From contig JBKBRF010000044.1 of assembly GCA_046292385.1 (NCBI GenBank), forward strand, positions 1 through 58,554: a stretch of 58,554 nt of DNA, in the 5' to 3' direction. Origin of the DNA: Armatimonadota bacterium. Lineage in GTDB: Bacteria; Armatimonadota; SYMT01. Below are positions 1,774-58,554 of the stretch, piece by piece (position 1 is the stretch's first letter; the number at the start of each line of letters is the position of its first letter). The notes under the pieces are model-generated. The model did not search any database, was not told the origin of the DNA, and saw only the letters and a program-made list of their open reading frames with translations. Made by a program: the position numbers and the translations under genes.

Positions 1774-1859
1774 GCCACTGCTCTCCCTCGTCCGCGCTCT
1801 AATCCGGAACGCGGAATTGTAGCGTACATCGGCGGCAGTGCATTCCGGACTGACGCGCC

Positions 1860-2450
1860 CGCCCGTACGGGGGGTAAAAAGGCGCGAAGGAAGGGAAGGA
1901 CGCGAAGGGACCCGTCGGAAAGACACGCCTCGCGAAGACTGCCGCAGTGACGCGCTGGCGGATACTGTTGGCGAAATCGGGAAGCTTCTCCGGGGCCCCG
2001 CTGGCGCGGGGCGCGAAAGCAAGCATTCGCACTCCACAGGCTAGCCCGGATGAGATTCCCTCTCGTCGAGAGGGAGACTGCCTCGGTGCAGTCTGTGGAG
2101 TGCGGTGGCTTGCCACCGTTTCCCCGCCAGGGAATCTCGCCGGAGTGCTTGGCCGCCGGTGATTTTCCTGCCCCGCTGATTTCGCCAACAGTATCCTGGC
2201 GCGGCCCTTCTCCCGGGGCGAAGTCGCAAGCGTCAGAAGGCGGCGCTCACACGAGGGCGGGGGTGAGCTCGCCGGCCCGCGCGCGAGTGAACTCGGCGCT
2301 ACTCAGAGCGAAGCCCGCCTTCGCGGGCTGGGAGTCAGGCTGGTCGTGTCCTCGAAGGGAGCGTCAGGAAAGCCAATCCCCCAAAGACTGCCGGAGTGAC
2401 GCGCTCGCGCGGCCCTTCTCCCGGGGTGAAGTCGCAAGCGTCAGAAGGCG
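1860..2450. repeat. Mosaic of palindromic repeats
   Basis: GGATACTGTTGGCGAAATC (~1960) inverted at ~2177-2197; GCGCGGCCCTTCTCCCGGGG.GAAGTCGCAAGCGTCAGAAGGCG at ~2199 and ~2407; AAGACTGCCG.AGTGACGCGCT at ~1935 and ~2384; GTCTGTGGAGTGCGGTGGCTTGCCACCG (2091) inverted at 14156-14183. Confidence 0.85.
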
Positions 2451-2872
2451 ATGCGGATACGGCGGAATCTCGGCGTGGTGAACTGGACACCCTCATTCGC
2501 GACTCGCAGCTCCGGGTCGTCCAGGCCGGTCTTAGGTTCGCAGCCGATATCCACCCCCGAGGGCTCGTACTTTCGGCACATCGCGAAGCGACTGAAGTAG
2601 GTGAAGTCAAGCTGGCTGGTCGAGAGCACCACCCCCACGTTCCGGACCAGCACGTACTCTTCGATCCTCCCACCGTCACGGATGCGCATCAGGAGATCGC
2701 CGTTCGACTTCCGGTACACACCCGCGGACGGGACCGGCCGGCCATCCATGGTGACCCGCGCTTGCACTCGCAGCCAGAGCAGCGGCTGCAGGAGAACCAG
2801 AGCAGCCGCAGCACACACCACCGCCGCGACCAGCAGCTCCCGCATCCGCCGTCCCGGCATCTTCCTGTTCAC
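2441..2872 (-). CDS. Hypothetical membrane-anchored protein
   Basis: 143 aa, GGAGG RBS before GTG, N-terminal hydrophobic helix. Confidence 0.6.
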   Translation of the reverse strand: MNRKMPGRRMRELLVAAVVCAAAALVLLQPLLWLRVQARVTMDGRPVPSAGVYRKSNGDLLMRIRDGGRIEEYVLVRNVGVVLSTSQLDFTYFSRFAMCRKYEPSGVDIGCEPKTGLDDPELRVANEGVQFTTPRFRRIRIAF

Positions 2873-2976
2873 ACCACCCTCCGCCCGGCGTCCCGCCCCT
2901 ACCTCTTGAATGCGCCGGGAGCTGGACAGGCAGTGCGATTCGAGCGGACGCAGAGGCGCGCACAGGGTAGCCGCGA

Positions 2977-3110
2977 CTCGCCGGCCCGCGCGCGAGTAAA
3001 CTCGGCGCTACTCAGAGCGTAGCCCCGAAAACTTTCGGGGCTACGAACCAGGCTCGTCTTGTCCGCCTCATCCCCCTTCGCGTTCTTCCTTCCCTTCGCG
3101 CCTTCGCGTT
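2977..3110. repeat. REP-like repeats
   Basis: CTCGCCGGCCCGCGCGCGAGT.AACTCGGCGCTACTCAGAGCG also at ~2268-2310; CCCTTCGCG...CCTTCCCTTCGCGCC inverted at ~1881-1909. Confidence 0.8.
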
Positions 3111-3132
3111 CGTTCGAAAGCGACGATCCGAG

Positions 3133-3996
3133 CTACTCCACCTGCCCGCGGATCTTCCGCAGCCCGTCCAGGTTCAGGCGCAGCGCCTCTTCGGCGTCGA
3201 GCTCCTCGCGGTGGCCGAGGATCCCGATCGGGCCGGTGTAGCCGCTCTTCTTCACGATGCGGAGCAGCTCTACGTCCCGGTCGCCCTGGCCGATCGGCAA
3301 GATCTTCGGGCCGTCCTTGCGCATGCCGTTCAGGTTCAGCGCCAGGAGGTGCGGCTTCATCTTCGGCATCAGCTCGGCGAAGCGGTCCACGTGCGGGTGG
3401 CCGTGGTGGAAGTTGTAGACGATGCCGACGTTCGGCCGCTGCAGCCGCTCGATGATGGCGATCTGGTTCTCCGGCTCGCCGTACCAGCCGCCGTGGTTGT
3501 AGAGCGCCACCTTGCAGCCCAGCTTCTCCGCTTCGGCCGCCACCCAGCCGATCGGCCGCGCGGCGAGCTCGATCCGCTGGGCCTGGCTCGCTTCGGCCTC
3601 GGCAACACCGGTGGAGAGCCAGAGCTGGGGCTTCGCGCCCCGGCGACGGAGGAAGTCGAGGATCGTCCGGACGTGCTCCTCCTTCTCCGGCTCCGCGCCG
3701 AACGGGAACCAGAAGGCGTCGAGTGCGACCTGGTGCTTCTGGAGCGCGTCCAGCTCCCGGTCGAGCTGGGGCAGGTGCTCCGCGCGCCAGTCATAGGCGT
3801 AATGGCGGAAGCCGAGCCGCGCCATCATCTCCGCGCGCTCTTCCGGGCCGCGCTTTTTGGCGTCGAACGGGACGATACACCAGGCCATCAGGTTGTCGTC
3901 CGCGAAGAGCTTTCGGCCCTCCTGGGCCGCGTAGCCCGGGAGCGACAGCGCGGCCGCGGAGCCGCCGAGCAGCGCGAGCATCTCTCTACGTTTCAT
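3133..3996 (-). CDS. Tat-exported sugar phosphate isomerase/epimerase-like TIM-barrel protein
   Basis: MKRREML signal; LYNHGGW, VYNFHHGH, YTGPIGILGH motifs; ATGA overlap with upstream gene. Confidence 0.8.
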   Translation of the reverse strand: MKRREMLALLGGSAAALSLPGYAAQEGRKLFADDNLMAWCIVPFDAKKRGPEERAEMMARLGFRHYAYDWRAEHLPQLDRELDALQKHQVALDAFWFPFGAEPEKEEHVRTILDFLRRRGAKPQLWLSTGVAEAEASQAQRIELAARPIGWVAAEAEKLGCKVALYNHGGWYGEPENQIAIIERLQRPNVGIVYNFHHGHPHVDRFAELMPKMKPHLLALNLNGMRKDGPKILPIGQGDRDVELLRIVKKSGYTGPIGILGHREELDAEEALRLNLDGLRKIRGQVE

Positions 3997-6197
3997 CGGG
4001 AGTCCTTCTGTTTGGAACGATTCGGCAGGGCGAAAGCCACGTAGGCGTCTCCCAGCTCTCCCCCCAGCTTGCCGCCGCCGGTGGCGGGGATCACCACGTA
4101 CTGGCGGCCGTTCACCTCATAACTTGCGGGCGGCGCGTAGCCCCCGAACGGCAGCTTACGCGCCCAGAGCTCCCGCCCCGTGGCGGAGTCGAAGGCGCGG
4201 ATCTTGAGGTCTTTCGTGCCGGCGCAGAAGACCAGGCCGCCCGCCGTGGAGAGCGCGCCGCCGAAGTTTTCGGTGCCGGTCTTCGGGATGCCACGCCGGG
4301 TCAGCTCCTCGTGCTCTCCGAGCGGGACTTTCCACGCGATCTTGCCGGTGTTCAGGTCAATCGCGTTCAGCGTGCCCCACGGCGGCTTGCTGCCGGGATA
4401 GCCCTGCTCGTCCAGCAGCCGGTGGAAGCCGAGGAAGGTGTACTCCGGGCGGGAGCCGGGCGGGAGCGCCGGGAGCGGCCGGTCGCGGTCGAAGAGGTAG
4501 TCGAGCAGCGACTTCTCCGCGGCGGGCGCCAGCTCGATCTTCGGGTGCGTGCCGCTGCGGCCGGTCTGCAGCAGCCGGCTCACGTCGGCGTCTTTCATCC
4601 GGTAGTCGAGCGCCAGCAGCGGGGGCGCTACGCCAACCCCCTCCCGCGCCTCGCCGTGGCAGCCGACGCACGACTGCCGGTAGACCGTCTCCCCCGGCGT
4701 GGGCGGCCGGTTCGGGTCGCGCTGCACGGTGCGGGTCTGCGGCACCACCGTGATGATCCACGGCACCTCGTTGGAGCTGACGAAGAGATAGCCGCTGGTC
4801 GGGTCGAACGAGGCGCCGGTCCACTCGCCGCCACCGTGGACGCCGTAGAAGACGGTCGGCCGTCCCGCCTCGAACGGCTCGAACCAGCCGAAGCGGGCGG
4901 TGCGCAGTCTGCTGCTGATGTACTTCCGCGCCTCCGGGGAGAGGTTGGTGACGTCTTCCTTCCGGAACTCCTGGCGGGCGAACGGCTGCGGCAGCTCCAC
5001 GTCCGGCTGGTAGGGCGATGTCCGCTCGCCGGGGAGCTTCGAGGTCGGCGCGCGGCGCAGGCGGAACGGGAAGAGCGGCTTGCCGGTCACGCGGTCGAGC
5101 AGCAGCGTGTTCCCGATCTTGGTGACGGTGGCGACGGCGTCGACTTTCTTCCCGTTCCGCTCCACGCTCACCAGCACCGGCGGCGCGGGGATGTCGAGGT
5201 CCCAGATGTCGTGCCGGATCTCCTGGAAGTGCCAGAGCCGCTTCCCGGTTTCGGCGTTCAGCGCGAGCACGCAGTTGGAGAAGAGGTTGTCACCCCAGTG
5301 GCCGGCGCCGTCGAAGTTCGGCTTCGGAGGGCTGGTGGCGACGTAGACGATGCCCCGCTTCCCGTCGAGGGCGATGCCGCCCCAGCAGTTCGTGCCCTCT
5401 TCCGGCTGATCCCAGGTGTCGTAGCCGAATTCTCCCGGCTTCGGGATCGTGTTGAAGGTCCACAGGTGCTTGCCGGTGTGGAGATCGTAGCCGAAGACGT
5501 CCCGGTGGAAGCCGGCGAAGACGATCACGCTGCGGTAGACCGCCGGCGCCACGCGGAAGTGGCCCGTCCGCGCCTTCCCGCCGCTGCCGAAGCTCTCGAT
5601 CGGCTTTCCGGTCTTCGCATCGAGCGCCCAGAGGTCGTCGCCGGCGTTGAACAGAATCCGGCTCGGGTGTCCGCCCTCACCCCGCCAGTAGGTGAGGCCG
5701 CGGAACGCCGGCTGCCCGCCCGGCTTGAAGCGCCAGAGCTCCTTGCCGGTCTCCGCGTTGACGGCGACCACGTGCTCGCCGACCGTCGGCGCGTACATCA
5801 CGCCGTCGACGATCACCGGGTTGCACTGGATGTTCCCGGCGCCGTCCCCGGAGCGGTAGACCCAGGCGACTTCCAGCTCTTTCACGTTCTCCCGCGTGAT
5901 CTGCGCCAGCGTGGAGTAGCGCGTGCCGGCGTCGCCGCCGTGGGAGCGGGTCCAGTCCTTGCCATTGCGGAGGTCGGACCCATCCCCGGCCGGGGTCAGC
6001 TCGTGCGGCTCCGCGGCGGGGATGACGCGGTACTTCGGCAGGGCGGCGCGCGCGGCGGCGTCCTCCACCTGCTGGTACTCCGCGGCGGAAGGCCCGCTCG
6101 CCCCTTCCGCGGGGCGCTCCCCGCCCTGCAGCCCCGCGCAGACCGCGGCCGTGGCAGCGAGCGGACCGATCAGCTTGAGTCCGAGCCGGTCTTTCAC
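3993..6197 (-). CDS. PQQ-dependent (quinoprotein glucose-type) dehydrogenase with inserted cytochrome c domain
   Basis: PQQ propeller motifs (RYSTLAQI, WHFQEIRHDIWDLD, PPWGTLNAIDLNTG, YEVNGRQYVV); CVGCH heme motif; true start GTG 6197 overlapping the upstream stop (GTGA). Confidence 0.9.
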   Translation of the reverse strand: MKDRLGLKLIGPLAATAAVCAGLQGGERPAEGASGPSAAEYQQVEDAAARAALPKYRVIPAAEPHELTPAGDGSDLRNGKDWTRSHGGDAGTRYSTLAQITRENVKELEVAWVYRSGDGAGNIQCNPVIVDGVMYAPTVGEHVVAVNAETGKELWRFKPGGQPAFRGLTYWRGEGGHPSRILFNAGDDLWALDAKTGKPIESFGSGGKARTGHFRVAPAVYRSVIVFAGFHRDVFGYDLHTGKHLWTFNTIPKPGEFGYDTWDQPEEGTNCWGGIALDGKRGIVYVATSPPKPNFDGAGHWGDNLFSNCVLALNAETGKRLWHFQEIRHDIWDLDIPAPPVLVSVERNGKKVDAVATVTKIGNTLLLDRVTGKPLFPFRLRRAPTSKLPGERTSPYQPDVELPQPFARQEFRKEDVTNLSPEARKYISSRLRTARFGWFEPFEAGRPTVFYGVHGGGEWTGASFDPTSGYLFVSSNEVPWIITVVPQTRTVQRDPNRPPTPGETVYRQSCVGCHGEAREGVGVAPPLLALDYRMKDADVSRLLQTGRSGTHPKIELAPAAEKSLLDYLFDRDRPLPALPPGSRPEYTFLGFHRLLDEQGYPGSKPPWGTLNAIDLNTGKIAWKVPLGEHEELTRRGIPKTGTENFGGALSTAGGLVFCAGTKDLKIRAFDSATGRELWARKLPFGGYAPPASYEVNGRQYVVIPATGGGKLGGELGDAYVAFALPNRSKQKDSR

Positions 6198-7486
6198 GCG
6201 AGGGCTCCCGTTCCGGCCGGGGCCGCCATCCGGCCCGCCTTGATCTCGCCGCCCTGGATCACCGCGAGGAAGCGCGAGCGGTCCTCCAGGATGCTGATCT
6301 CCGCGAGCGGGTCGCCGTCGACCAGCAGCACGTCGGCGAGCTTGCCCGGCTCCAGCGTGCCGAGCTCGTCCGCGCGGTCCATGATCTCCGCGCCGGTCTT
6401 CGTGGCGCAGGTGATCACCTCCAGCGGGGAAAAGCCGACGTGCTGGACGAAGAAGGTCAGCTCCTTCGCGTAGGTGCCGTGCGGGTTCCAGGCGAAGCCG
6501 TAGTCGCCGCCCATCCCCAGGCGCCCGCCCGCCTTCAGAATCTTCCGGGCGCTCTCCGCGCCGCCTTCCAGCGTCTCCTGGTGGCCGTCGATCACCGCCT
6601 GCGGCATCCCGACTTCCGGCCCGTGGACCACGCTGGCGTACTCGAACTGGAGCGCCGGCACCACCGGCACGTCCCGCTGCAGCAGCAGGTCGAGCGCCTC
6701 GTCGTCCATAAACGTGCCGTGCTCCAGGGTGTCGTACCCCGCCCGCAGCGCGTTCTTGATCCCCTCCGTGGCGCGGCAGTGGCCGGTCACCTTCATCCGG
6801 TGGTTGTGGGCGGTGCGGACCACCGCGTGCATCTCCTCGAACGTCATGCAGAGCGTGTGGTGGTCGTTCGTGTCCGGGGCGGCGGCATCGCCGGTCGGGT
6901 AGGTCTTCACCCACTCCACGCCGTCCTTCACCAGCTTGCGCACCGCGGCCCGCGCCTCGTCCGGGCCGTTCACCAGGAGCACCAGGCCCTCCATGCCGAT
7001 CTTGCGAAAGTCCGGGTTCCAGTCCATGAGCCCGCCGACGCCGCAGATCTCGCGACCGCTCGCCGAGAGGCGCGGGCCGAGCGTGACCCCTTCGTCGATC
7101 CCCTTCTTCAGCCAGACGTCGATGTTGAACAGGCTCCCGCCGCTCCGCGCCGCCGTGTAGCCGCACTCCAGCGCCAGGCGGGCGTTGTTGGCGGCGAGGA
7201 GCGTGACGTACTCCACCGGGTACTTGATGTCGAGGTCTTCCAGCGCCGCCACGTTGAAGTAGGTCGGGTGGAAGTGCGCCTCCACCAATCCGGGCATGAT
7301 CGTGCCGCCGCGGACGTCGATCTGCCGCGCGCCCGCCGGCAACTCCGGACACCCCGCCGCGGGGCCCGCGTACTCGATGCGGCCGTCCCGGATCACGAGC
7401 GCCGCATCCGGCACCGGCGGGGCGCCGGTCCCGTCCACGAGCTGACCGTTGGAGATCAGCGTCACCCCCGTCGCAGTCTTCATCAC
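6194..7486 (-). CDS. Metal-dependent amidohydrolase (prolidase-like)
   Basis: PGLVEAHFH, WVK, GHC, LEHG, GGD metal motifs; GTLEPGKLADVLLVDGDP. Confidence 0.9.
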   Translation of the reverse strand: MMKTATGVTLISNGQLVDGTGAPPVPDAALVIRDGRIEYAGPAAGCPELPAGARQIDVRGGTIMPGLVEAHFHPTYFNVAALEDLDIKYPVEYVTLLAANNARLALECGYTAARSGGSLFNIDVWLKKGIDEGVTLGPRLSASGREICGVGGLMDWNPDFRKIGMEGLVLLVNGPDEARAAVRKLVKDGVEWVKTYPTGDAAAPDTNDHHTLCMTFEEMHAVVRTAHNHRMKVTGHCRATEGIKNALRAGYDTLEHGTFMDDEALDLLLQRDVPVVPALQFEYASVVHGPEVGMPQAVIDGHQETLEGGAESARKILKAGGRLGMGGDYGFAWNPHGTYAKELTFFVQHVGFSPLEVITCATKTGAEIMDRADELGTLEPGKLADVLLVDGDPLAEISILEDRSRFLAVIQGGEIKAGRMAAPAGTGALA

Positions 7487-22815: not shown

Positions 22816-23682
22816 CTACTTCAAGTTCAGCAGGACCACGGCCGCCACTGCCAGGACGATCCCGAGCCACGCCGCCGGCGAGGGCCGCTCCCGCCAGACG
22901 AGCATGGAAGCGAGCACGTTGACCGCCACCCCGAGCGACGCGGAGACCGGGAAGACGATCACCGCCGGCAGCTCTCTCAAGGCGAGCAGCAGGAAGAGGA
23001 GCTGCGCCACGTTGACCAGTCCCAACACGGTGCCGAGGACCCCTTCGCTCAGCAGCACCCCGCCTTCCTGCACCGGCTCGGTGCGCCCGGTGTCCCGCGT
23101 GGCTGCCATCCAGAGCAGCGTGAAGAGAGTCGCCGCCAGGAAGAGCGCGGTGGAGAAGAGCGGGCGGTCCACCTCCGGCCGGGTGGCGGCGAACTCCTTC
23201 ATCAGGATCTGCGAGCCGCTGGCACTGACGAAGAGCACCAGCACGAGCGGGCTGAGCCGGATCCGCCCCGCCCCGCCGACCGCCGTCGAAGCGCTGAGGA
23301 TCGGCAGTGCGATCAGCGTGAGCAGGATCCCGACCGCCTGGTAGCTGTTCGGGACCTCCGCGAACCGCCAGATGGAGTACGGCACCGGCGCCATGAGCGA
23401 GAGCTGCAGGATCGCGCCGGTGACGGAGACGCCGCTCGCGCGCATCGCGGGGAGCATGAGAACCAGCGAGCTCACATAGGTGAACCCCGCCAGCGATCCG
23501 AGCAGCAGCGTCTGCGGATGCGCGCCCCGCCCGGCCAGCCAGAGCCAGGCCCCACACCCGGCCGCCGCGACCGCGTAGTTCAGCGCCGCCGCCGCCATCG
23601 GGCTGCGCGTGCGGGCCTGCGAAAGCCGCATCAGGTGCGCGAACGAGACGGTAGCGAGGATCCGCAGGACGAGGTAGAGCAT
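22816..23682 (-). CDS. DMT/EamA-family transporter
   Basis: About 10 TM helices in two repeats (FAE.P, WRERP); start ATG 23682. Confidence 0.8.
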   Translation of the reverse strand: MLYLVLRILATVSFAHLMRLSQARTRSPMAAAALNYAVAAAGCGAWLWLAGRGAHPQTLLLGSLAGFTYVSSLVLMLPAMRASGVSVTGAILQLSLMAPVPYSIWRFAEVPNSYQAVGILLTLIALPILSASTAVGGAGRIRLSPLVLVLFVSASGSQILMKEFAATRPEVDRPLFSTALFLAATLFTLLWMAATRDTGRTEPVQEGGVLLSEGVLGTVLGLVNVAQLLFLLLALRELPAVIVFPVSASLGVAVNVLASMLVWRERPSPAAWLGIVLAVAAVVLLNLK

Positions 23683-49934: not shown

Positions 49935-51089
49935 CTACCGGAGGTCTGGTGAAGGTGGGCGCAGCGTGGCCCGCATCAGCATCACGTTGTACGGGTTCCA
50001 GGTGGAGAGGACGAAGTAGATCGTCGCTTCCTTCTCGTCACCCTTGAAGAAGCGAGGGATGAGGTAGGGGCCGTAGGGGCCGCCGGTCACCCGCTCTCGA
50101 CCGGGGTCGTGCAGCGAGCTCGGGGCCGCGCCGGGCTGGGCGTCGTGGATGAACTTGCCGTAGGCGTCCTGCCACGGATCGAGGAGCGTCCGCGCCTCCG
50201 ACCACGGACCGGCGGGGCGCTCCGCGGTGCGAATGACCACCCCACGCGGATGCTCGAGGTTGTAGAGCATCAGCCAGCGCTTGAGCGGCGCGCACCACGC
50301 CACGCTGAGCTCTCCGATCATCGGGTGGTAGAAAAGCGGGCGCGCCTCCCCTTCCAGCGCGCTCCAGCGCTCGCCGCCGGTCCAGTAGCGGATCGCCGAC
50401 CGGTCCTCTACCTTCTCCAGCGGCACGAAGGCGAGGTACGGATCGCTGCGGCGGTATTCCTTCCCCGCCGCCCACATCAGCAGCCCCTTCCCCTCCTTCA
50501 CCGGGAGACCGGGCACCTCCGCGGCGTCGACCACCGCCGGCGAGACGTTGATGAAGCGGTCGGTGGAGAGGGTGTAGACCAGCTCCCACTGCTTCGCGTC
50601 TTTGCTGCGGAGGAGCACGGAGCGGCCCATGATCTTGCCGCGCGGGCTATCCTGCGCGTCGGTGGTGAAGAACGCATACATGAAGCCGTTGTGGCTGAAG
50701 CCGCCGTTCGGAACCTCGAACCCCTTCAGCGAGACGCCGGGCACGCTCACCGCCAGGTACTTGCCGTCCGGCGCGGTGACGAAGTCGAGCTCCAGCCCGT
50801 CGTCCGGGTTCGTATCGGTGCTGAACGCCACGGAGTCGCCGTCGTACGGGCGGTCCGGCGTGTTCGGCCCGCTCGGGTGCGTATCCCCGAACAGGAAGAC
50901 GAGCTTCCCCTCGTGCTCGAACGAGGCGCCGAGATCGGTGGCGGCGAGCCCGAAGCGGGAGGCGGTGCGGCTGGGAGTAGGGCGATTGAGCTGGCGGTCG
51001 TGCTCTCCCGTAAGCTGGGAGACCTTCTGCACGCTGCCCGGCACCACCACCGGCGTTGCGGCCAGGAGGGCGAGAAAGAGAGTGATCAT
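49935..51089 (-). CDS. Secreted DUF4185-domain protein
   Basis: TDLG......LVFLFGDT, GELSV.W, GPWSE, YGPY, STWNPYNV. Confidence 0.8.
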   Translation of the reverse strand: MITLFLALLAATPVVVPGSVQKVSQLTGEHDRQLNRPTPSRTASRFGLAATDLGASFEHEGKLVFLFGDTHPSGPNTPDRPYDGDSVAFSTDTNPDDGLELDFVTAPDGKYLAVSVPGVSLKGFEVPNGGFSHNGFMYAFFTTDAQDSPRGKIMGRSVLLRSKDAKQWELVYTLSTDRFINVSPAVVDAAEVPGLPVKEGKGLLMWAAGKEYRRSDPYLAFVPLEKVEDRSAIRYWTGGERWSALEGEARPLFYHPMIGELSVAWCAPLKRWLMLYNLEHPRGVVIRTAERPAGPWSEARTLLDPWQDAYGKFIHDAQPGAAPSSLHDPGRERVTGGPYGPYLIPRFFKGDEKEATIYFVLSTWNPYNVMLMRATLRPPSPDLR

Positions 51090-51126
51090 GGTCGGTGGGT
51101 AGAGCGCTCCCTAAGTTTCACTGTTT

Positions 51127-51232
51127 CAGGTTAGCAGGTTTGGGGTTCCAGGTTTCAGGTTGCAGGTTCCAGGTTGGCTGCACCGACGGCGGGGTTTGGA
51201 ACCTGCAACTTGCCAAGCTGCAACCTGCCAAC
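51127..51232. repeat. CAGGTT(N) heptamer inverted array
   Basis: About six CAGGTTN units followed by inverted AACCTGC units directly after a stop codon. Confidence 0.8.
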
Positions 51233-51237
51233 AACCC

Positions 51238-52026
51238 TTAGCTGCTGGCGCTGGAGTAGCTCCGGAGCGCGAAGCGCCAGAAGGCGACCGCCAGCGCGAA
51301 GAGCCCGACCGCGAACCCGGCGGCCACCGCGAGCCACGGCAGCGGCAGCTCCCCCACCAGCGCCCGGGCGGGGAAGCTGGCGACGAAGGCCAGCGGGATG
51401 ACGTAGATGAAGAGGCTCCGGACCCAGTCGCGGAAGATATCGATCGGGTAGCGCGCCACCTGGAACACCACGTCTGCCAGGACCCAGAGGTTCTCGATCC
51501 GGATGAACCAGAAGGCGAGCGTCATGAGCAGGGTGTAGACGGAGAAGTAGATCACCAGCGCGCAGAGGCAGAGGAAGAGGTAGGCGAGCACGGTCCCGGG
51601 CGTAATCCGCGCCGCCAGCGACCCGGTGCTGTAGAGGAGGAGCAGCAGCGAGCCGACGGTGGTGCCGATCCCCTCCAGCCGGACGTAGCGCGTGGCGACG
51701 AAGAAGAGCGAATCGACCGGCCGCGTGACGACGAAGTCGAACGTCCCGAGCCGGATCTGCTCCGGCAGGCGGCTGAGGTTCTGGTAGGCAACCACCCCGA
51801 AGACCCCGTGGATCAGCCCGAAGGTGCCGGTGAGGGAGAGCATCTCCGCCTCCGTCCACCCCGCCACCGCCTCCGTATTGCGGAAGAGGATCTTGATCAG
51901 CAGGACGAAGAAGAGCAGCCACCCCGCGTTCGCCACCAGGTTGGCCCAGAAGTTGGCGCGGAACTCCGCCTCGCGGGCCAGGCAGTTCTCCCAGAAGATC
52001 CGATAGAGGCGCAGGTAGCGGAGCAT
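51238..52026 (-). CDS. ABC-2 family permease (DUF990-type)
   Basis: FRANF, GTFDFVVTRPVD, YPIDIF, IPLAF...PA, YSSASS; start ATG 52026. Confidence 0.88.
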   Translation of the reverse strand: MLRYLRLYRIFWENCLAREAEFRANFWANLVANAGWLLFFVLLIKILFRNTEAVAGWTEAEMLSLTGTFGLIHGVFGVVAYQNLSRLPEQIRLGTFDFVVTRPVDSLFFVATRYVRLEGIGTTVGSLLLLLYSTGSLAARITPGTVLAYLFLCLCALVIYFSVYTLLMTLAFWFIRIENLWVLADVVFQVARYPIDIFRDWVRSLFIYVIPLAFVASFPARALVGELPLPWLAVAAGFAVGLFALAVAFWRFALRSYSSASS

Positions 52027-52133
52027 CAGGCACAGCGCGGCGCCCCCGACCCGGCGCCGGGAGCCCAACCGGGTAAGTGTGGCCCACTCCGGCACGGGCG
52101 TCCACCCGCCCGGCGCGCCCCCCCCCGCGGTGC

Positions 52134-52162
52134 TTGACACCGAACCCGGCGAACGCTACAAT
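52134..52162 (+). promoter_or_regulatory. Sigma70 promoter of tRNA-Gly
   Basis: TTGACA, 17-nt spacer, TACAAT. Confidence 0.9.
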
Positions 52163-52173
52163 GAGCCCGTTCC

Positions 52174-52245
52174 GCGGGGGTAACTCAGTGGTAGAGTCAC
52201 TGCCTTCCAAGCAGTTGGTCGCGAGTTCGAATCTCGTCCCCCGCT
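52174..52245 (+). tRNA. tRNA-Gly(TCC), CCA not encoded
   Basis: Acceptor GCGGGGG/CCCCCGC, D arm ACTC/GAGT, anticodon stem ACTGC/GCAGT with loop CTTCCAA, T loop TTCGAAT. Confidence 0.96.
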
Positions 52246-52284
52246 TACCCGCGACGTGCCGTTTCCCATTTCAGGCACGAAATA

Positions 52285-52407
52285 GAGTCACTACCCCCTG
52301 TGCTGCCGGCTCCTTTCGACACCTTGAAGGAGCCTGTAGATGCCAAACAGAGTCACTACTTCCCGGGGCAGACGAGTCACTGCTTCCGAGGATGATAGAG
52401 TCACTAC
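52285..52407 (+). repeat. Four GAGTCACTRC direct repeats (candidate integrase arm sites)
   Basis: Cores at 52285, 52350, 52374, 52398; fifth copy inside the tRNA at 52194. Confidence 0.85.
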
Positions 52408-53404
52408 CTCTCGTCGGACGGAAGAACGCCCCTCCCGCCCCCCGTCCGACCTGCGCCGAGCAATTGCCGGCTGGCTTGCAGACGGCAAAGCCCAGGGCTG
52501 GAGTCCTCGTACCCTAGAAGACCGCCGTCTTACGATGGAACGGTTCTGCTGGTGGCTGGAGAACGAGGAGGAACCCCCTCTGGCGTTAAGCACCCTCACC
52601 CCCAACTGCATCCGCACGTTTCTGGCTTACGTTCGTGAGCCAAATCCGAACGGGCGATTCGGGTGTGAGCGGGAATCCGCCAAACGGGAAGCACGACCCG
52701 CAACCGTGAACGCGTACTTCCGCGCCCTGCGTGCCTTTGCCAATTTCTGCCGGGCAGAAGGGCTGCTGGACGAAACACCGTTGAAGAACGTCAAAGCACC
52801 TCGTGTGCCGGTTGACCAAGTACAGCCCCTCGCGCCTGATCAGCTTCAAACCCTCGTGGATGCCGCCAGGCGCACACAGGCCTCAGAGCGGAACGTCGCG
52901 CTGATTCTCCTGCTCGTGGATACCGGGATGCGCTGTTCAGAACTATGCGGTCTGCTCGTAGGCGACGCGGACCGAGGCACGGGCGAGTTAACTGTCACGG
53001 GCAAGGGCAACAAGAAGCGGCGGGTCTACATGGGCACAGCTACTCGCCGAGCCCTCTGGCGCTACCTCGAAACCGACCGGAGAGACGCATTCACGGACGA
53101 ACCCCTGTTCGTCTCCGTGGGAGGGCACGCTCGCGGAACCGGCATGACGCACACCGGTGTTCACCGGATCATTCACGAAGCCGGCAAGGCGGGTCGCATA
53201 CAAGGGGTGCGCTGCAGCCCCCACACCCTGCGCCACACCTTCGCAGTCAACTTTCTACGCGGCGGAGGCAACCTCTTTGAGCTTCAGCAGTTGATGGGAC
53301 ATACGGACCTCACAGTGCTCCGCAGGTATGTCGCTCTCGCCGACACCGACCTCGCCGAGGCGCACCGCGCCGCCAGCCCCGTCGAACGCCTGAAGCTTCG
53401 GTAG
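52340..53404 (+). CDS. Tyrosine recombinase/integrase
   Basis: DTGMRCSEL, GKGNK, HTLRHT, MGH, RRY catalytic residues; GAAGGAG RBS. Confidence 0.95.
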   Translation: MPNRVTTSRGRRVTASEDDRVTTSRRTEERPSRPPSDLRRAIAGWLADGKAQGWSPRTLEDRRLTMERFCWWLENEEEPPLALSTLTPNCIRTFLAYVREPNPNGRFGCERESAKREARPATVNAYFRALRAFANFCRAEGLLDETPLKNVKAPRVPVDQVQPLAPDQLQTLVDAARRTQASERNVALILLLVDTGMRCSELCGLLVGDADRGTGELTVTGKGNKKRRVYMGTATRRALWRYLETDRRDAFTDEPLFVSVGGHARGTGMTHTGVHRIIHEAGKAGRIQGVRCSPHTLRHTFAVNFLRGGGNLFELQQLMGHTDLTVLRRYVALADTDLAEAHRAASPVERLKLR

Positions 53405-53425
53405 ACGGGCGAAACGCCCGCTATC

Positions 53426-53458
53426 AGCTCCCGGCCTTCGAGGCCGGGGGCTTTTTTT
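53426..53458 (+). terminator. Rho-independent terminator after the integrase
   Basis: AGCTCCCGGCCT/AGGCCGGGGGCT stem followed by a T tract. Confidence 0.85.
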
Positions 53459-53530
53459 CTGACTCCGTGTAGGAAACCCCCATCAGCTCAGCCATAAGGC
53501 CGTGAAAGCAATTGCTTCAGGGGACCGACG

Positions 53531-53803
53531 TTGAGCAGAGACCGCCCGTTTGCAGCACGACGCCAGGAACTCGGCTTGTGCCTACAGCGGGCAGCGGCCA
53601 GACTCCGGATCAGTGCTAAATATCTGCGAGCACTGGAACGGGGGCAGGTACCACTCTCCTACTCACTGGCGCGACGGATGGCCGTCGAGTACAGCACCAC
53701 CGTTGATCTCCTGACGCGTACCGCTGGTAGAGACCGAGCCGGAAGCACAGGGGATGGGCTGAAAGCGAATGGGAACGCTTTCAGCCCACAGAGAAGCAGC
53801 TAG
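53531..53803 (+). CDS. XRE-family helix-turn-helix protein
   Basis: RRQELGL....AAARLRISAKYLRALERG pattern; TTG start. Confidence 0.7.
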   Translation: MSRDRPFAARRQELGLCLQRAAARLRISAKYLRALERGQVPLSYSLARRMAVEYSTTVDLLTRTAGRDRAGSTGDGLKANGNAFSPQRSS

Positions 53804-54385
53804 CCGCGCCTTCGCACCTTTCTTGCGTTATGCCGCTTGGGTTCGGCACAACGCCTCCTACCGACAGGAGAGGACGACGCCAGAGAAAGCCACTCCGGCG
53901 AGACAGCACAGACAGCCGTTCATGAAGCGGCAGAGATTCCGACAGGTAAGGCCTTCGGCTGCTGCCTCTTGAGGAGTCGCCACCGTCAGCAGCGCGAGCG
54001 CCCCTGTGCCAGCCTCTCATCCTCTCTGTCCACCCGCCGGCACTGACCCGCCGGCATCCTACTCCGGTGGAGGCTCCACACCCCCGGCTCGGTTGCCAGG
54101 ATGAGCCTTGTCCGGTGCCAGTGGCCCGCCAGCAGCGTTGCAGCTAGCCTCCGCACATCCGCGCGGCAACCCTCACCACCGTCTTCTGGAGGCACTGAAG
54201 CGGCTACCTGCCGGCCCTCGCAGCACGATCTTTCTCGGAACGAAGCGCAATCAAATGCTGCCAAACCCTAAACTCTAATCGCCCACACATACGATAGCTT
54301 AGGTGGAAGCACCCATAGACGGCTCCCAGGCAGAACCCGAGGCCATCTATGAAAACCCGCCCCTGATGAGGTAGGAGGAACAGAC

Positions 54386-54673
54386 ATGCCCGCCAAGAAA
54401 ACCCCGAGTCCGACTGAACAGGCCCTGAATGGCCTCATCCTCAAGAAGCTGGAGGGGCATCCGAATGGGCTCACCCAGACGCAGCTCATTAGCAAGTTTC
54501 GTTCCCCTGACGTGTACGGCCCGCGGTACACGTTCCATCCGAACGCTATCAAGAAAGCGGTTGCCCGACTTGCGGAGGACGGGCGGGTAGAGTTAAACCC
54601 CGACCGGACATTCACCGATCTGCGCGTTCGACTTCTGCCGGCTGTGAAGAATGAGGAGGCCGCCGATGTCTAG
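54386..54673 (+). CDS. Small winged-helix-like protein
   Basis: GGAGG RBS; ILKKL...PNGLTQTQL...IKKAVARLAEDGRV; overlaps the primase start. Confidence 0.7.
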   Translation: MPAKKTPSPTEQALNGLILKKLEGHPNGLTQTQLISKFRSPDVYGPRYTFHPNAIKKAVARLAEDGRVELNPDRTFTDLRVRLLPAVKNEEAADV

Positions 54674-56453
54674 TGCCATCCTCGAACCGCATGGCTGTGT
54701 AGCCGTGCGGCCACAGCCAGAGGATGAGGCGCGCCAATTCCTCTCCACGTTGTTTCCCGCCATGCCTCATGGTGGCAGGCTCCTTATCTGGACCCTACCT
54801 TCAAAGTGCTCGACATGGTGTACCTCGGCAGAGGGAGCCATGACGGCTGTGGAGCGCGCTCGTGCCGAGTCGGATGTCTACTTCGGCCTTGCCTTGTCTC
54901 CGGAGGGGTACGGCAACAGGCAGCGGTGCACGGCTGACGCCGTTATCGCCGTCCCCGGAGTGTGGGCTGACGTAGACCTGGGCGATGAGGGGCACAAGCA
55001 GCATAAGAAACCGAACCCGGCGAATTGGGAAGCGGTTCGAGCGGCTTTGGACGATGCGGAGGTTCCCGCTCCTACCATCGTCGTGGCGAGCGGCGGAGGG
55101 CGGCATGTCTACTGGCTGTTTCCCGAGGTTTGGCAGTTCGGTACGGATGAGGAACGCCAGCAGGGAGCTGCCCTGGCAGAGCGGTTTCAGGGCGCGCTTC
55201 GGGCTATCTTTGCCAAGCACGGTTGGAACCTGGACGCGACTGCAGACTTGTCGAGAGTTCTGCGCGTGCCAGGGACGTTTAACCGGAAGGATGCGAGCAA
55301 CCCGAAGCCCGTACAGCTCCTCACCGCTGACGGCCCCCGCTACTTGCGGGAAGACCTGGAGGCATTCTGTGAGCGGTTCGATGCGTCTTCGACACAGTAT
55401 GTCAGGCGGACTCGACAGGAGAGCGCCATAGCTGAAGTGATGGTTGCTGAAGACCTGGAGCTTGACCCGCATGCCGTCGTTGACCCAGACATGGTTCTAG
55501 CCCTCTGCGATGCCAACCCGAAATTCCGCGAGTCATGGGAGCGAAAGCGTAGTCGGAATGAGTTTCCGGATCAGAGCGGCTCCAGTTACGACATGAGTTT
55601 GGCAGTCCTTGCCGCGCAAGCGGGCTTGTCTGATCAGGACATCATCGACCTGCTCATTGCCCACAGGCGCAAACACCGCGACGACCTGAAGCTCCGGCTC
55701 GACTACTACCGGAGAACGCTGAAGAGGGCGCGCCAAACGTGCGCTAGGGGCGGGCAGACTGCCTCCTTGGACACCCTAACAGACCTGCATGCACAACTGA
55801 CGGCAAGCGGCGCAAAGCTGGAACACGAAGACCGGGCAGCTATCCTGCGGGAACTGGAGGAGCTGTTCGGCTTTAGTGCGCGCATCCTGCGCATCGTGCG
55901 CTACCCGGGGACAAACCCCACCTTCGTCCTTGAGACCGATCAGGGACGGGTACACCTTGGGGGAGTGAGAGGGCTAACCCGACAGGACCAGTTACGAGAG
56001 CATGTGCAGGCACACCTTCGGCAAACCCTCCCGCGCTTCAAGATAAAGGACTGGGAAGAACGTATCGTGCCGGCCCTTCTCGCGGTGCTGGAAGACGAAG
56101 ACCTGGGCGAAGAAGCCACGGAAGAGGGTGAGACGAGGGGCTGGCTGTGTTGCTACCTTGAGGAATACTCGCCGGAGGAGCGCCAGGCGGATGACCAGCC
56201 GTTTTGGAAGATCGCCGAGAGCCATTCAGGCGATGCGCCGTTCCTGTTGGGAGAGCACGCCCATATCTCCGTCCGGTCCTTCAAGGAGTGGGTGCAGCGC
56301 CACTACAGGGAGTACGCCCTTATCACAGAGCGCACGCTCGCTATGAGACTGGAAGGGGTGGGTTGCAAGCATGTGTCGAAGACCTACACCAAAGGAAACG
56401 GCAAACGGGGTAACCGCAAGTACTGGGTGCTTCCCTCACTCTTCGAGTGGTAG
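54666..56453 (+). CDS. RepB-type (AEP superfamily) DNA primase/replication protein
   Basis: WADVD, VVASGGGRHVYW, DLSRVLRVPGTFN; helical DQSGSSYD domain; GAGGAGG RBS before ATG 54666. Confidence 0.85.
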   Translation: MSSAILEPHGCVAVRPQPEDEARQFLSTLFPAMPHGGRLLIWTLPSKCSTWCTSAEGAMTAVERARAESDVYFGLALSPEGYGNRQRCTADAVIAVPGVWADVDLGDEGHKQHKKPNPANWEAVRAALDDAEVPAPTIVVASGGGRHVYWLFPEVWQFGTDEERQQGAALAERFQGALRAIFAKHGWNLDATADLSRVLRVPGTFNRKDASNPKPVQLLTADGPRYLREDLEAFCERFDASSTQYVRRTRQESAIAEVMVAEDLELDPHAVVDPDMVLALCDANPKFRESWERKRSRNEFPDQSGSSYDMSLAVLAAQAGLSDQDIIDLLIAHRRKHRDDLKLRLDYYRRTLKRARQTCARGGQTASLDTLTDLHAQLTASGAKLEHEDRAAILRELEELFGFSARILRIVRYPGTNPTFVLETDQGRVHLGGVRGLTRQDQLREHVQAHLRQTLPRFKIKDWEERIVPALLAVLEDEDLGEEATEEGETRGWLCCYLEEYSPEERQADDQPFWKIAESHSGDAPFLLGEHAHISVRSFKEWVQRHYREYALITERTLAMRLEGVGCKHVSKTYTKGNGKRGNRKYWVLPSLFEW

Positions 56454-56605
56454 CGGGTAAGAGCGGGTGAAGCGGGTTAAGCCCTATTATAAGGCGAAAA
56501 GAACCACTCGCTGAATCACACGCGAACCCGCTTCACCCGCTTCACCCGCTTCACAGGCACGGGAAAAAAGCCTAACCCGCTTCACAACTCGCTTCTATCC
56601 GCTTC
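56452..56605. repeat. Iteron-like 9-mers: putative replication origin
   Basis: AGCGGGT x3 (56452, 56462, 56471), AT-rich spacer, then inverted ACCCGCTTC x4 (56526, 56535, 56544, 56575) plus two variants (56587, 56597). Confidence 0.8.
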
Positions 56606-57130
56606 AAATCCAATACGACTCATTGGCGTAAACCATGGGGGTAAGATCCACGCCCTATAGTAGGGGAGGCGAGAGAGTTGCCTCTCTCGCCGTAATGTGA
56701 GCTGAAGGCCCGGAGGCGTGCTTCGCATGTGCGTGAGACAACCTGGGGCGAAATGCGGCCCCACACCGACGAAACCGAGAACCACGGCAGCGACATCAGC
56801 ACCGATAACGCGGGAGCCAATGAAAGAGAGCTGGGGGAGGAGATCGAGCAATGCCGGTTGCCGTGCGAGACCGCAGGCGGCGGGAGGACCGCAACGCGGT
56901 GGAAACGCTGCCGGCCTGTTGGCGTGACCGTTAAAACGAGAGCCTCATGGGCTGCGAGTAATTGTTATTGCTATTCCTGCCTGGCGAGGCCGAAGCTCTG
57001 GAACGCTGCAAAAATTGGGGGAGGGGGCATCTTATCGACCCCCTCCCCCTTTCGCCGTCCGCATTACTTCGCAGATAGGTTCCAGGCGGCTCCTAGTCGG
57101 GCTGCACTTGACTTTCAAACTTGCTGGTTG

Positions 57131-58306
57131 TCACCGGCTCATCATCTCGTCAAGAACCGCAGCGGATACTTGCGCTCTGGCGTGTGCCTGTTGCGCTCTC
57201 TCCAGCGCAGCCCTATCCCCCGTCTGCAAATGGTCTCGCAGGTGCATAGCTGATTCCCGGGTGGCTTGGCCCCAAGATGTAAAGGCGGCCAGGAATTGCT
57301 GCCCTGCGGGATGGCGCGTCATAGGATCGTTCGACCTCTCTTGGAGGTATGCTTCGCCGGAAGCAATTCCCGCCTCGGTCGCTCCCACAAAGTCGTCAAC
57401 AGCAGCTTGCGCCTCGCTGTTGGAAGCTTGAGGACCTGCTGGAGCGGACATGACGATTTGGAGCATCTGCTGATAGTCGTTCTCGGCTGTCTGTGAGAAG
57501 GAGCCACCACTGCTGACGCGACTCGGCGGTGCCACCGTGGCCGCATTCGGAAGTGACTGATAATCCGCGGCATGCCCGGTCATCTGCCTGCCCGAATGGC
57601 GCTCGGCAGTTGGCTGGGCGACTGTAGCTCCGCTGATGCGCCCGTGCCGTAGCTGATAGCCGATAATCGAGTGTTCGGCCAAGATACCTCGGACCGTCAC
57701 AGACTGCCCCTTGATGAGGGAGAGTAACGTGTCCTTCTGTGAGCCATCAAGTTCGATCCTCACATCCGACCCATAGCTCTTGGGATTGCATCGAAGGCGC
57801 AGCATTCCCCCACCTTCGATGGACGCATCTCGAAGTTCACCTGTCCAAATTACTTCCGTTCCCTGTACAGACTGCCAGTAAGCCTGCTTCTGCGCGTCAG
57901 TCAGAGTTGTGCGCCGATCATCCATGACGGCATCCACGGTCATGAAGTGAGGACCGGGGTTGGCTTTATTCACTCCGAATCGCGGAAGGTCTAACGGGCC
58001 GCGCCCACGGGCAATGTTGAGCAGTGAGAGGCTGTACCACAATCCCACGCCAGCGACGACGATTATGACACAACCACAGATCACCTGAAGCGCGCTGCAC
58101 GCAAGTTGGCGTTTCACGCCTGCTATTGCCACATCCTGTAAAGGATGCACCGCAGGCGCAGGCGTCGCGCTGGGCTGACCGGGACTTCCCGCCTCACCTG
58201 CTTGGCTCTCTGAAGCCAACACGCCTCGCACACAGTAGGCGCAGAGGCTCCGCTTCGTATCCATAGGACGACCGCACTGGGGGCAGGGGCGAAGTGATTG
58301 TCCCAA
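57131..58306 (-). CDS. Membrane protein: Zn-ribbon, TM, OB-fold-like domain, helical C-terminus
   Basis: CPQC...CAYC, hydrophobic helix, GTEVIWTG..KGQSVTVRG; GAGGAGG RBS before TTG. Confidence 0.75.
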   Translation of the reverse strand: MGQSLRPCPQCGRPMDTKRSLCAYCVRGVLASESQAGEAGSPGQPSATPAPAVHPLQDVAIAGVKRQLACSALQVICGCVIIVVAGVGLWYSLSLLNIARGRGPLDLPRFGVNKANPGPHFMTVDAVMDDRRTTLTDAQKQAYWQSVQGTEVIWTGELRDASIEGGGMLRLRCNPKSYGSDVRIELDGSQKDTLLSLIKGQSVTVRGILAEHSIIGYQLRHGRISGATVAQPTAERHSGRQMTGHAADYQSLPNAATVAPPSRVSSGGSFSQTAENDYQQMLQIVMSAPAGPQASNSEAQAAVDDFVGATEAGIASGEAYLQERSNDPMTRHPAGQQFLAAFTSWGQATRESAMHLRDHLQTGDRAALERAQQAHARAQVSAAVLDEMMSR

Positions 58307-58537
58307 GGCGCAACCTCCTCTCGCTCCGATCCAAGCATCACCAGAGGCGACGCAAGTCTATTTTCGACTATTCCAACTTAAACTCTACCATTGTGGCCGG
58401 AACGCTGCCACAATGGAAAAGTCCGTCTTCACGCCGAGCTACCATCAGAAGGTGTGTAAACGGTGAAGGCGGTGAACCTTCCTTCTAGAGACTAGAAGCA
58501 GCCGAGGGCCAACTCGGCAAAGGAAGGAAACACCGCC

Positions 58538-58554
58538 ATGAAAGAGATTACCGC
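58538..58554 (+). CDS. Start of a CDS truncated by the window end
   Basis: AAGGAAGG followed by ATG AAA GAG ATT ACC. Confidence 0.4.

Follow-up and report, generated by a model that had tools for sequence, protein, structure and literature searches.

Tyrosine recombinases usually act on a core site in which half-sites of about 11 bp lie beside a 7-bp spacer. In the lambda-type integrases the arms of the attachment site are read by a separate N-terminal domain, and the arm and core sequences differ from each other. Additional recombinase sites are also found in other systems that resemble the one described here, such as the extra IntI1 sites DR1 and DR2 of attI1 and the third Flp repeat of FRT. 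At the opposite end of the range, the integrase of phage Brujita reportedly uses small sites, with neither arms nor directional control.

Besides the lambda-type integrases, four described systems come closest to the locus analysed in this work. The recombinase TnpI of Tn4430 has no arm-binding domain, and its internal resolution site combines two inverted core motifs with the tandem motifs DR1 and DR2, which carry the recognition sequence of the core, bind extra recombinase subunits, shape the synapse and order strand exchange (PMC2847244). Brujita Int is listed as a simple, that is arm-less, phage integrase (PMC8138268). IntS of KplE1 is a negatively autoregulated, tRNA-adjacent integrase of the heterobivalent type, with distinct arm-type sites in its promoter (PMC2951348). 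Finally, the anticodon loop is one of the sublocations of tRNA-gene integration distinguished by Williams (2002, as cited in PMC8371274).

The DNA analysed here (the window) is the whole of contig C44 of the source genome G000, with a length of 58,554 nucleotides. As the sequence-only reading had pointed out, the decamer GAGTCACTRC is present five times on its + strand within 214 bp, starting at 52194, 52285, 52350, 52374 and 52398; only 0.19 matches were expected by chance, and none of 100 dinucleotide shuffles reached five. Over both strands of the 7.04-Mb genome there are 14 exact matches versus about 20 expected from base composition, five of them within these 214 bp and two more at a related junction on contig C10, and GAGTCACTRC is thus not a common word of the source genome. 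The copy at 52194 lies inside tRNA-Gly(TCC), where it comprises the 3′ strand of the D-stem, base 26 and the 5′ strand of the anticodon stem up to the loop. The three copies at 52350, 52374 and 52398 follow each other at the 24-bp period that had also been noticed, inside the open reading frame of the integrase gene (int), and encode the peptide repeat RVTTS/RVTAS/RVTTS. Since this frame has no alternative in-frame start ahead of Met66, these three copies are translated if Int is made at full length. The claimed extension of the match into the flanks holds with an offset of one base (TGCCTTCC in the tRNA versus TAC-TTCC in the repeat). The coordinates of all features are collected in Table 1.

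Table 1. Features of the tRNA-Gly(TCC)/integrase locus, in positions of the window.
Feature	Position	Strand	Basis or remark
Promoter-like site of the tRNA gene, TTGACA-17-TACAAT	52134..52162	+	11/12 consensus positions
tRNA-Gly(TCC), attL of the tandem islands	52174..52245	+	ARAGORN, Rfam
Left core half-site (presumed), AGAGTCACTGC	52193..52203	+	3′ D-stem strand, base 26, 5′ anticodon-stem strand
48-bp identical block	52199..52246	+	attL = A/B junction C10:7199-7246 = attR C10:22897-22944
Anticodon loop CTTCCAA, inferred 7-bp overlap (crossover)	52204..52210	+	Dyad symmetry, start points of the partial tRNA copies
Right core half-site (presumed), reverse complement CGACCAACTGC	52211..52221	-	Dyad
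Island A, left part	52247..58554	+	~60% GC vs ~70% in host; leaves the contig in a multi-copy repeat
Arm copy P'1, AGAGTCACTAC	52284..52294	+	91 bp from left core half-site
Hairpin GGCTCCTT..AAGGAGCC pairing the int Shine-Dalgarno sequence (SD)	52308..52334	+	SD paired 5/5
int, two-domain (core-binding + catalytic) tyrosine integrase, 354 aa	52340..53404	+	Pfam, structure model
Arm copy P'2, AGAGTCACTAC	52349..52359	+	Codons 4-7; 65 bp after P'1
Arm copy P'3, CGAGTCACTGC	52373..52383	+	24 bp after P'2
Arm copy P'4, AGAGTCACTAC	52397..52407	+	24 bp after P'3
Terminator-like hairpin after int	53426..53452	+	Terminator scan

The anticodon stem-loop of the tRNA forms a dyad, ...CACTGC CTTCCAA GCAGTTG..., of which GAGTCACTRC makes up the left half plus the flank on its outer side. 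Each copy outside the tRNA is one half-site, oriented like the left one, and several run on into loop-like bases (TTCC in island A, GTCT in the homologous locus L007). The integrase most likely recombines at this stem-loop; the crossover would fall in the loop, its exact point being hidden by the 48-bp block of identity.

Directly past the tRNA gene the GC content falls from the host value of about 0.70 to about 0.60, and the left part of island A carries int, a gene for an HTH regulator (53531-53803) and a primase/polymerase-like gene (54651-56453). On contig C10 two partial copies of the tRNA were found, one at 7194-7248, which belongs to element A and starts exactly at GAGTCACTGC, and one at 22897-22944, which starts at ACTGCC. 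While the 48-bp block is common to attL, the A/B junction and attR, the first two alone have a longer block in common (52194-52248); in sequencing run X1 the 48 nucleotides form a single contig of their own, with a depth of 230. A contig of metagenome run X2 follows positions 52116-52246 without differences and passes straight into C10:22944-22973, and the depth in this run is zero in all bins from 52383 to 58300; a related metagenome population therefore carries the empty site. In the source genome island A must follow tRNA-Gly and end at the first partial tRNA, behind which come island B (15.7 kb), the second partial tRNA and host DNA. No direct overlap between C44 and C10 was found and their join is not unique from the assembly alone; we made it because of the empty site and of the A-type copies at C10:7080-7194. 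The tail of C44 and the head of C10 lie in a multi-copy repeat (31-mers of the tail and of the head were each found in six other contigs), which explains the break in the assembly. A second joint seen in run X1, from 51352 to 56976, was disregarded, as its shorter side consists of only 20 letters. With int beside an intact tRNA, displaced direct repeats of this tRNA from its anticodon stem to its 3′ end, and an empty site in run X2, the locus belongs to the tRNA-integrating islands.

Several features of the islands were observed in passing. The multi-copy repeat at the end of the window (58436-58554), where the depth in run X1 reaches 535, and at C10:1-31 is probably an insertion sequence within island A. 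C10 also carries an integrase-family gene at 636-1598 and, at 1797-6731, a gene for a protein of 1644 aa with an N-terminal AAA/NACHT ATPase domain, which resembles STAND-type defence-like cargo; this stretch is probably the right part of island A. Island B (C10:7246-22896) contains an int gene, an HTH gene, a head-completion gene and a tape-measure gene, and may be a prophage remnant or a phage satellite. In run X1, which is the probable source run, the contig of island A (52219-58463) has a depth of 84.7 and the host flank (50500-52223) one of 59.7. The depth of the 48-nt core contig compares with about 180 expected for three chromosomal copies. Coarse as contig depths are, these values hint weakly at additional copies, which may be excised or replicating.

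The catalytic domain of Int was recognised by Pfam (PF00589, E = 8.6e-32), and R184, K222, H295, R298, H321 and Y330, the R-K-H-R-H/W-Y set of the tyrosine recombinases to which the protein belongs, are invariant in 20 aligned homologs. An AlphaFold model based on 20 homologs (mean pLDDT of 86) shows a helical domain (residues 37-140) followed by the catalytic domain (165-350), while residues 1-35, which the repeats encode, have a pLDDT of about 46 and no secondary structure. The fold matches XerA, XerH, Brujita Int (5vfz), IntI4 and residues 75-356 of lambda Int; other matches in sequence or fold were XerD and the Int of Tn1549 minus its N-terminal part. As modelled, Int is a simple Xer-like tyrosine recombinase without an N-terminal arm-binding domain. 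Two other assignments were considered and rejected. The scores for the XerC/XerD chromosome-dimer resolvases lie far below the cut-offs (154.9 bits versus 335 for TIGR02224 and 142.7 versus 329.6 for TIGR02225). A housekeeping role of the XerC/XerD kind does not agree with the position of int at a tRNA in a low-GC island and with several paralogs in the genome, nor does a heterobivalent enzyme of lambda type agree with the lack of an arm-binding domain and with arm copies that equal the core half-site at 9-10 of 10 positions. The Int of island B is 68% identical to that of island A and starts 93 bp past the tRNA-derived part of the first partial copy on C10; in both islands an HTH gene follows int.

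The spacing of the copies on the right arm is nearly constant among elements. Counted from the left core half-site, they stand at +91 and then at +65, +24 and +24 bp in element A, at +91, +65 and +24 bp in element B, where the repeat sequence is AAGCAACTGC, and at the same +91, +65 and +24 bp in L007, a homolog of 54% identity at tRNA-Arg(TCG) in genome G005; the values are +89, +63 and +24 bp in L026, which lies at tRNA-Gly(CCC) in genome G006. The sequence-only reading had proposed to look for the motif at attR, and copies are indeed present on that far arm. In element A these are two A-type copies, one at C10:7080 and one at 7127, which is 66 bp ahead of the core copy at 7193. Element B has two B-type copies with a spacing of 24 bp, at C10:22800 and 22824, of which the second stands 68 bp ahead of the core copy at about 22892. 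In two further genomes, two copies 23 bp apart stand 80 bp before a 58-nt partial copy of tRNA-Arg (contig C23 of G005), and three copies 24-25 bp apart stand ahead of a partial copy of tRNA-Arg(CCT) (contig C86 of G006). The order in the family is accordingly core half-site, P'1, SD hairpin, start codon, two or three copies within the first 25 codons and, at the other end of the element, the far-end copies. This layout is kept in the 68% paralog, in a paralog of 40% identity at tRNA-Val, and in homologs at Arg, Gly(CCC), Val, Ala, Thr, Pro and Gln tRNAs.

Other small elements lie near these sites. A short hairpin, CGTGCC..GGCACG, stands just after the tRNA (52255..52279, + strand), and a GGCACGAAA box just before the first arm copy is kept in A, B and L001 (region 52255-52282 of the window, C10:7255-7283 and 60-90 in L001). 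A related box of G005, TTACGCACGAAA / TTTCGTGCGTAA, occurs as an inverted pair on the two sides of the core, and boxes of the GGCACGAAA type may be sites for a bending or directionality protein. Positions 20600-20800 of contig C86 of G006 hold a degenerate tRNA-Arg-like sequence, P'1, the SD hairpin, a start codon and P'2, with the integrase body gone, and represent a decayed copy of the module.

The expression signals of int are interlocked with these copies. A promoter search over 52050-53600 returned the tRNA promoter only, with no sigma-70-like site between the tRNA and int. The int SD, AGGAG, is located at 52328-52332, 7 nt ahead of the ATG, and is sequestered in the hairpin given in Table 1. 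Among 25 loci examined, 21 had a start preceded by an SD, and the SD was fully paired in 17 of these (mean z = -3.0); the stems differ in sequence between the homolog loci (L007-L033), and in L010 and L013 the hairpin is shaped like an intrinsic terminator and immediately precedes the start codon. Rfam, run over 51800-53800, gave the tRNA alone at gathering score, besides three weak matches on the int terminator. From this arrangement it seems that translation of int is probably masked in read-through transcripts coming from the tRNA. The arm sites overlap the start codon and the first 23 codons of int, and Int bound at P'1-P'4 would stand in the way to its own gene, a possible route to autoregulation.

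A further check named in the sequence-only reading was whether, in integrase homologs next to other tRNAs, the repeats switch to the sequence of that tRNA. We searched 61 related genomes for homologs (E at most 1e-40) and found them in 20 genomes, the source genome included. This search returned 30 loci, of which 24 have a tRNA on the same strand 50-400 bp upstream, and these 24 cover eleven isotypes, including Gly, Arg, Val, Ala, Glu, Asp, Thr, Pro, Met and Leu; of the other six, in which no tRNA was called, L025 (element B) and L006 contain a tRNA copy that is partial or cut. The 10 nt that flank the anticodon loop of a locus's own tRNA on each side served as queries, their + strand matches being counted over the stretch between the end of the tRNA and approximately residue 45 of Int, and the null was obtained by permuting the tRNAs among loci with different anticodons. 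With the window locus excluded, the remaining 23 loci gave 18 own-tRNA matches in 13 loci at up to one mismatch, versus a permuted mean of 1.48 (maximum 8), and none of 5000 permutations reached 18; the loci are related, so that these counts overstate independence and should not be taken as probabilities. At up to two mismatches there were 39 matches in 20 loci versus 8.4, again with 0/5000 permutations, while the minus strand gave only 1 and 10 matches at the two thresholds. The repeats do change with the tRNA at which the integrase lies, although 10 of these 23 loci have no copy at up to one mismatch.

A profile search through all species genomes extended the comparison. It gave 78 loci, 37 of them with an upstream tRNA on the same strand, which were reduced to 35 by removal of two that duplicate loci of the first set; the nearest hits came from named Armatimonadota (Abditibacteriaceae, Fimbriimonas, Chthonomonas), and after these came Chloroflexota, Bacillota and others. 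In this wider set, whose loci are also related, own-tRNA matches numbered 8 versus 0.99 at up to one mismatch (0/3000 permutations) and 20 versus 7.6 at up to two mismatches (1/3000). The signal came from Armatimonadota and some Chloroflexota, with L046 and L083 each showing two copies 24 bp apart. Only 12 of the 35 loci had any match at up to two mismatches, and the Bacillota loci at tRNA-Leu or tRNA-SeC did not display the pattern.

Individual loci illustrate how closely the copies follow the target. Three perfect copies of GAGCACCAGT are present in L007 at +113, +178 and +202, and L026 has copies at 110, 173 and 197. The third family member of the source genome, the 40% paralog, is encoded on contig C64 behind tRNA-Val(TAC), where AGCCACCTGT and GACCACCTGT, 65 bp apart, match the right half-site of this tRNA at 9/10 and 10/10 positions. 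The agreement is lower elsewhere. The AAGCAACTGC repeat of element B matches the right half-site (reverse complement) at 8/10 positions and the left one at 7/10, and it agrees with B's own core copy, GAGACAACTGC, at 8/11. The elements of G006 at tRNA-Arg(CCT) have repeats GAGCRACTAC versus GAGCGCCTCC in the tRNA (7-8 of 10), and these repeats resemble those of element A. The match between arm and tRNA is graded rather than exact, and part of the motif may be inherited within a subclade. The arm copies within one element are closer to each other than to the core, which fits arms kept at a preferred sequence and a core constrained by the function of the tRNA. De novo repeat finding in the 24 loci, with a strict 10-mer seed and at most one mismatch, recovered tRNA-matching repeats (up to one mismatch) in five (L005, L007, L019, L026 and L032) and in L029 at two mismatches; the copies of distant homologs are too degenerate to be recovered by this 10-mer method.

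The peptides encoded by the repeats differ fully among loci (RVTTS, KATA, EHQS, QRQ), with the motif lying in different reading frames, and the constraint therefore acts on nucleic acid and not on protein. The arrangement is a property of the whole family rather than a local curiosity.

We consider it likely that the repeats are homotypic accessory sites for the integrase, which would build an attP-specific complex on them and also repress int through them; that Int binds these copies is a prediction drawn from sequence comparison. The sequence-only reading had suggested sites derived from the target that act as arms, decoys or autoregulatory sites, and the use as arms, as autoregulatory sites or as both is the reading that best accounts for the copies on the far arm and for the co-variation with the tRNA. 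According to this model, the repeats would be extra copies of the core-type half-site of the integrase itself, the 7-nt loop serving as the overlap and the stem with its outer flanks as two inverted half-sites. To these the attachment site would add two half-sites on the far arm, at a distance of some 66-80 bp from the core, and on the right side one at 91 bp and two or three more 65 bp further on, spaced by 24 bp within codons 4-23. Extra integrase protomers would occupy the arm copies through the same DNA-binding surface that reads the core, and the resulting higher-order complex would distinguish the site of the element from the bare tRNA and steer the reaction, a role that corresponds to that of the arm sites and the arm-binding domain in lambda Int and of DR1/DR2 in TnpI. 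Occupancy of the right-arm sites probably also represses int, as they are placed downstream of the tRNA promoter, ahead of the body of int and over its first codons. The hairpin that sequesters the ribosome-binding site would act as a second brake, and the N-terminal peptide repeat would be a by-product of the DNA sites.

A related possibility is that copies bound by Int are purely operators or decoys, which repress int or titrate Int without assembling any complex. Three of the four right-arm copies do lie over the first int codons, downstream of the sole promoter-like site, that of the tRNA, and both an overlap of attL with integrase expression signals and negative autoregulation are documented for tRNA-associated integrases (PMC2951348). 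Such a restricted function appears rather unlikely, however, in view of the copies with the same spacing on the far arm, which in the integrated state is 14-16 kb or more away from int, and of the distances to the core (91 bp; 66-80 bp), which stay fixed across elements of differing sequence. Alternatively, the protein that binds the repeats might be the HTH regulator (53531-53803) or an excisionase that went unrecognised, rather than the integrase. Direct repeats in att arms are frequent targets of directionality factors, and the HTH gene stands behind int in A as well as in B; yet a second protein would have no reason to track the anticodon stem, and the repeats co-vary with it across more than ten tRNA species, so we regard this option as improbable.

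It had also been speculated that the integrase transcript contributes to target recognition. Tyrosine recombinases with two domains read DNA directly. P'2-P'4 are transcribed within the coding sequence in the same sense as the tRNA, and they are closely preceded by a conserved RNA hairpin, so that tRNA-like segments at the 5′ end of the int mRNA could in principle guide the enzyme to its target, mimic the tRNA or control translation. Nevertheless, P'1 and the far-arm copies have the same sequence and phasing and lie upstream of the coding transcript or outside it, Rfam recognised no RNA family in the region besides the tRNA, and a single protein reading both core and arms explains the co-variation; the transcript proposal found no support, and an action at the RNA level is very improbable. 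We attach equally little weight to the view that the match to the tRNA arose by chance or through shared descent only, or that the peptide repeat is what functions. The universal D-arm segment TAGAG(C/T) gives some likeness to any tRNA, and the nearest relatives (A, B and G006) have ..CAACT.C / ..CACT.C parts in common, but the permutation tests (0/5000 and 0/3000) and perfect matches of 10-13 nt at unrelated tRNAs speak against both chance and descent, as do, for the peptide, its unrelated sequences between loci and the disordered N-terminal tail.

Taking the repeats as accessory integrase sites, the closest functional likeness is to TnpI: in both cases the accessory motifs carry the sequence of the core half-site, their binding being predicted in the present case. 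TnpI resolves cointegrates at a site inside a transposon, whereas the integrase described here is aimed at a tRNA gene; moreover, its accessory half-sites lie on both arms, most of them inside the coding sequence of the recombinase, and the motif varies with the tRNA target. With the lambda-type systems the locus has in common the sites on the P and P' arms at fixed distances from the core, a 7-bp overlap (inferred here) and a target whose 3′ tRNA part is restored by the element, but it differs from them in its arms, which are copies of the core half-site, and in the modelled enzyme, which lacks an arm-binding domain. Like Brujita Int, it is a two-domain integrase of a mobile element and belongs to the "simple YR" group, unlike Brujita Int it comes with an elaborate, conserved array of accessory half-sites. 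As in KplE1 intS, the gene lies directly beside a tRNA, so that attL would extend over its expression signals, and by analogy autoregulation by bound Int may be expected; here, in contrast, the sites are core-like and largely within the coding sequence, and a hairpin that sequesters the SD is added. An identity block that spans the tRNA from anticodon stem to 3′ end, with the stem-loop dyad as core, corresponds to the anticodon-loop sublocation of Williams; that classification concerns the place of integration in the tRNA and, as far as we found, includes no accessory copies of a stem half-site. In the full-text literature, which leaves subscription journals largely outside, we found no description of core-like arm copies inside or ahead of an integrase gene that track the target tRNA. 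Accessory-site control of tyrosine recombinases and tRNA-targeting islands are both known kinds of system, and their combination here is a variant.

The broader interpretation, to which we give about even chances, is that a clade of arm-less Xer-like integrases in Armatimonadota and some Chloroflexota builds a lambda-like multi-site complex with a single DNA specificity, the arms being copies of the preferred half-site. If so, the core in the tRNA would be the nearest version of this preferred half-site that tRNA function permits, and a switch to another tRNA target would require all five or six arm copies to be rewritten together, including the first 25 codons of int. Each element would then be a readable record, in several copies, of the recognition code of its integrase, and the family as a whole would amount to a set of tRNA integrases that nature has re-targeted. 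A survey of tyrosine recombinases takes the view that the integrases of mobile elements became mobile by gaining an arm-binding domain, simple two-domain enzymes being rare on phages and ICEs (PMC8138268). The family suggests another route to a regulated attachment site, in which the core half-site is multiplied and no domain is added. It would also be a clear case of a protein whose own predicted binding sites dictate its N-terminal coding sequence. With dozens of natural pairs of integrase and half-site, in which the half-site is present four to six times per element and at least ten tRNA species are represented, it would provide the type of data needed for decoding, and perhaps re-programming, the specificity of tyrosine recombinases.
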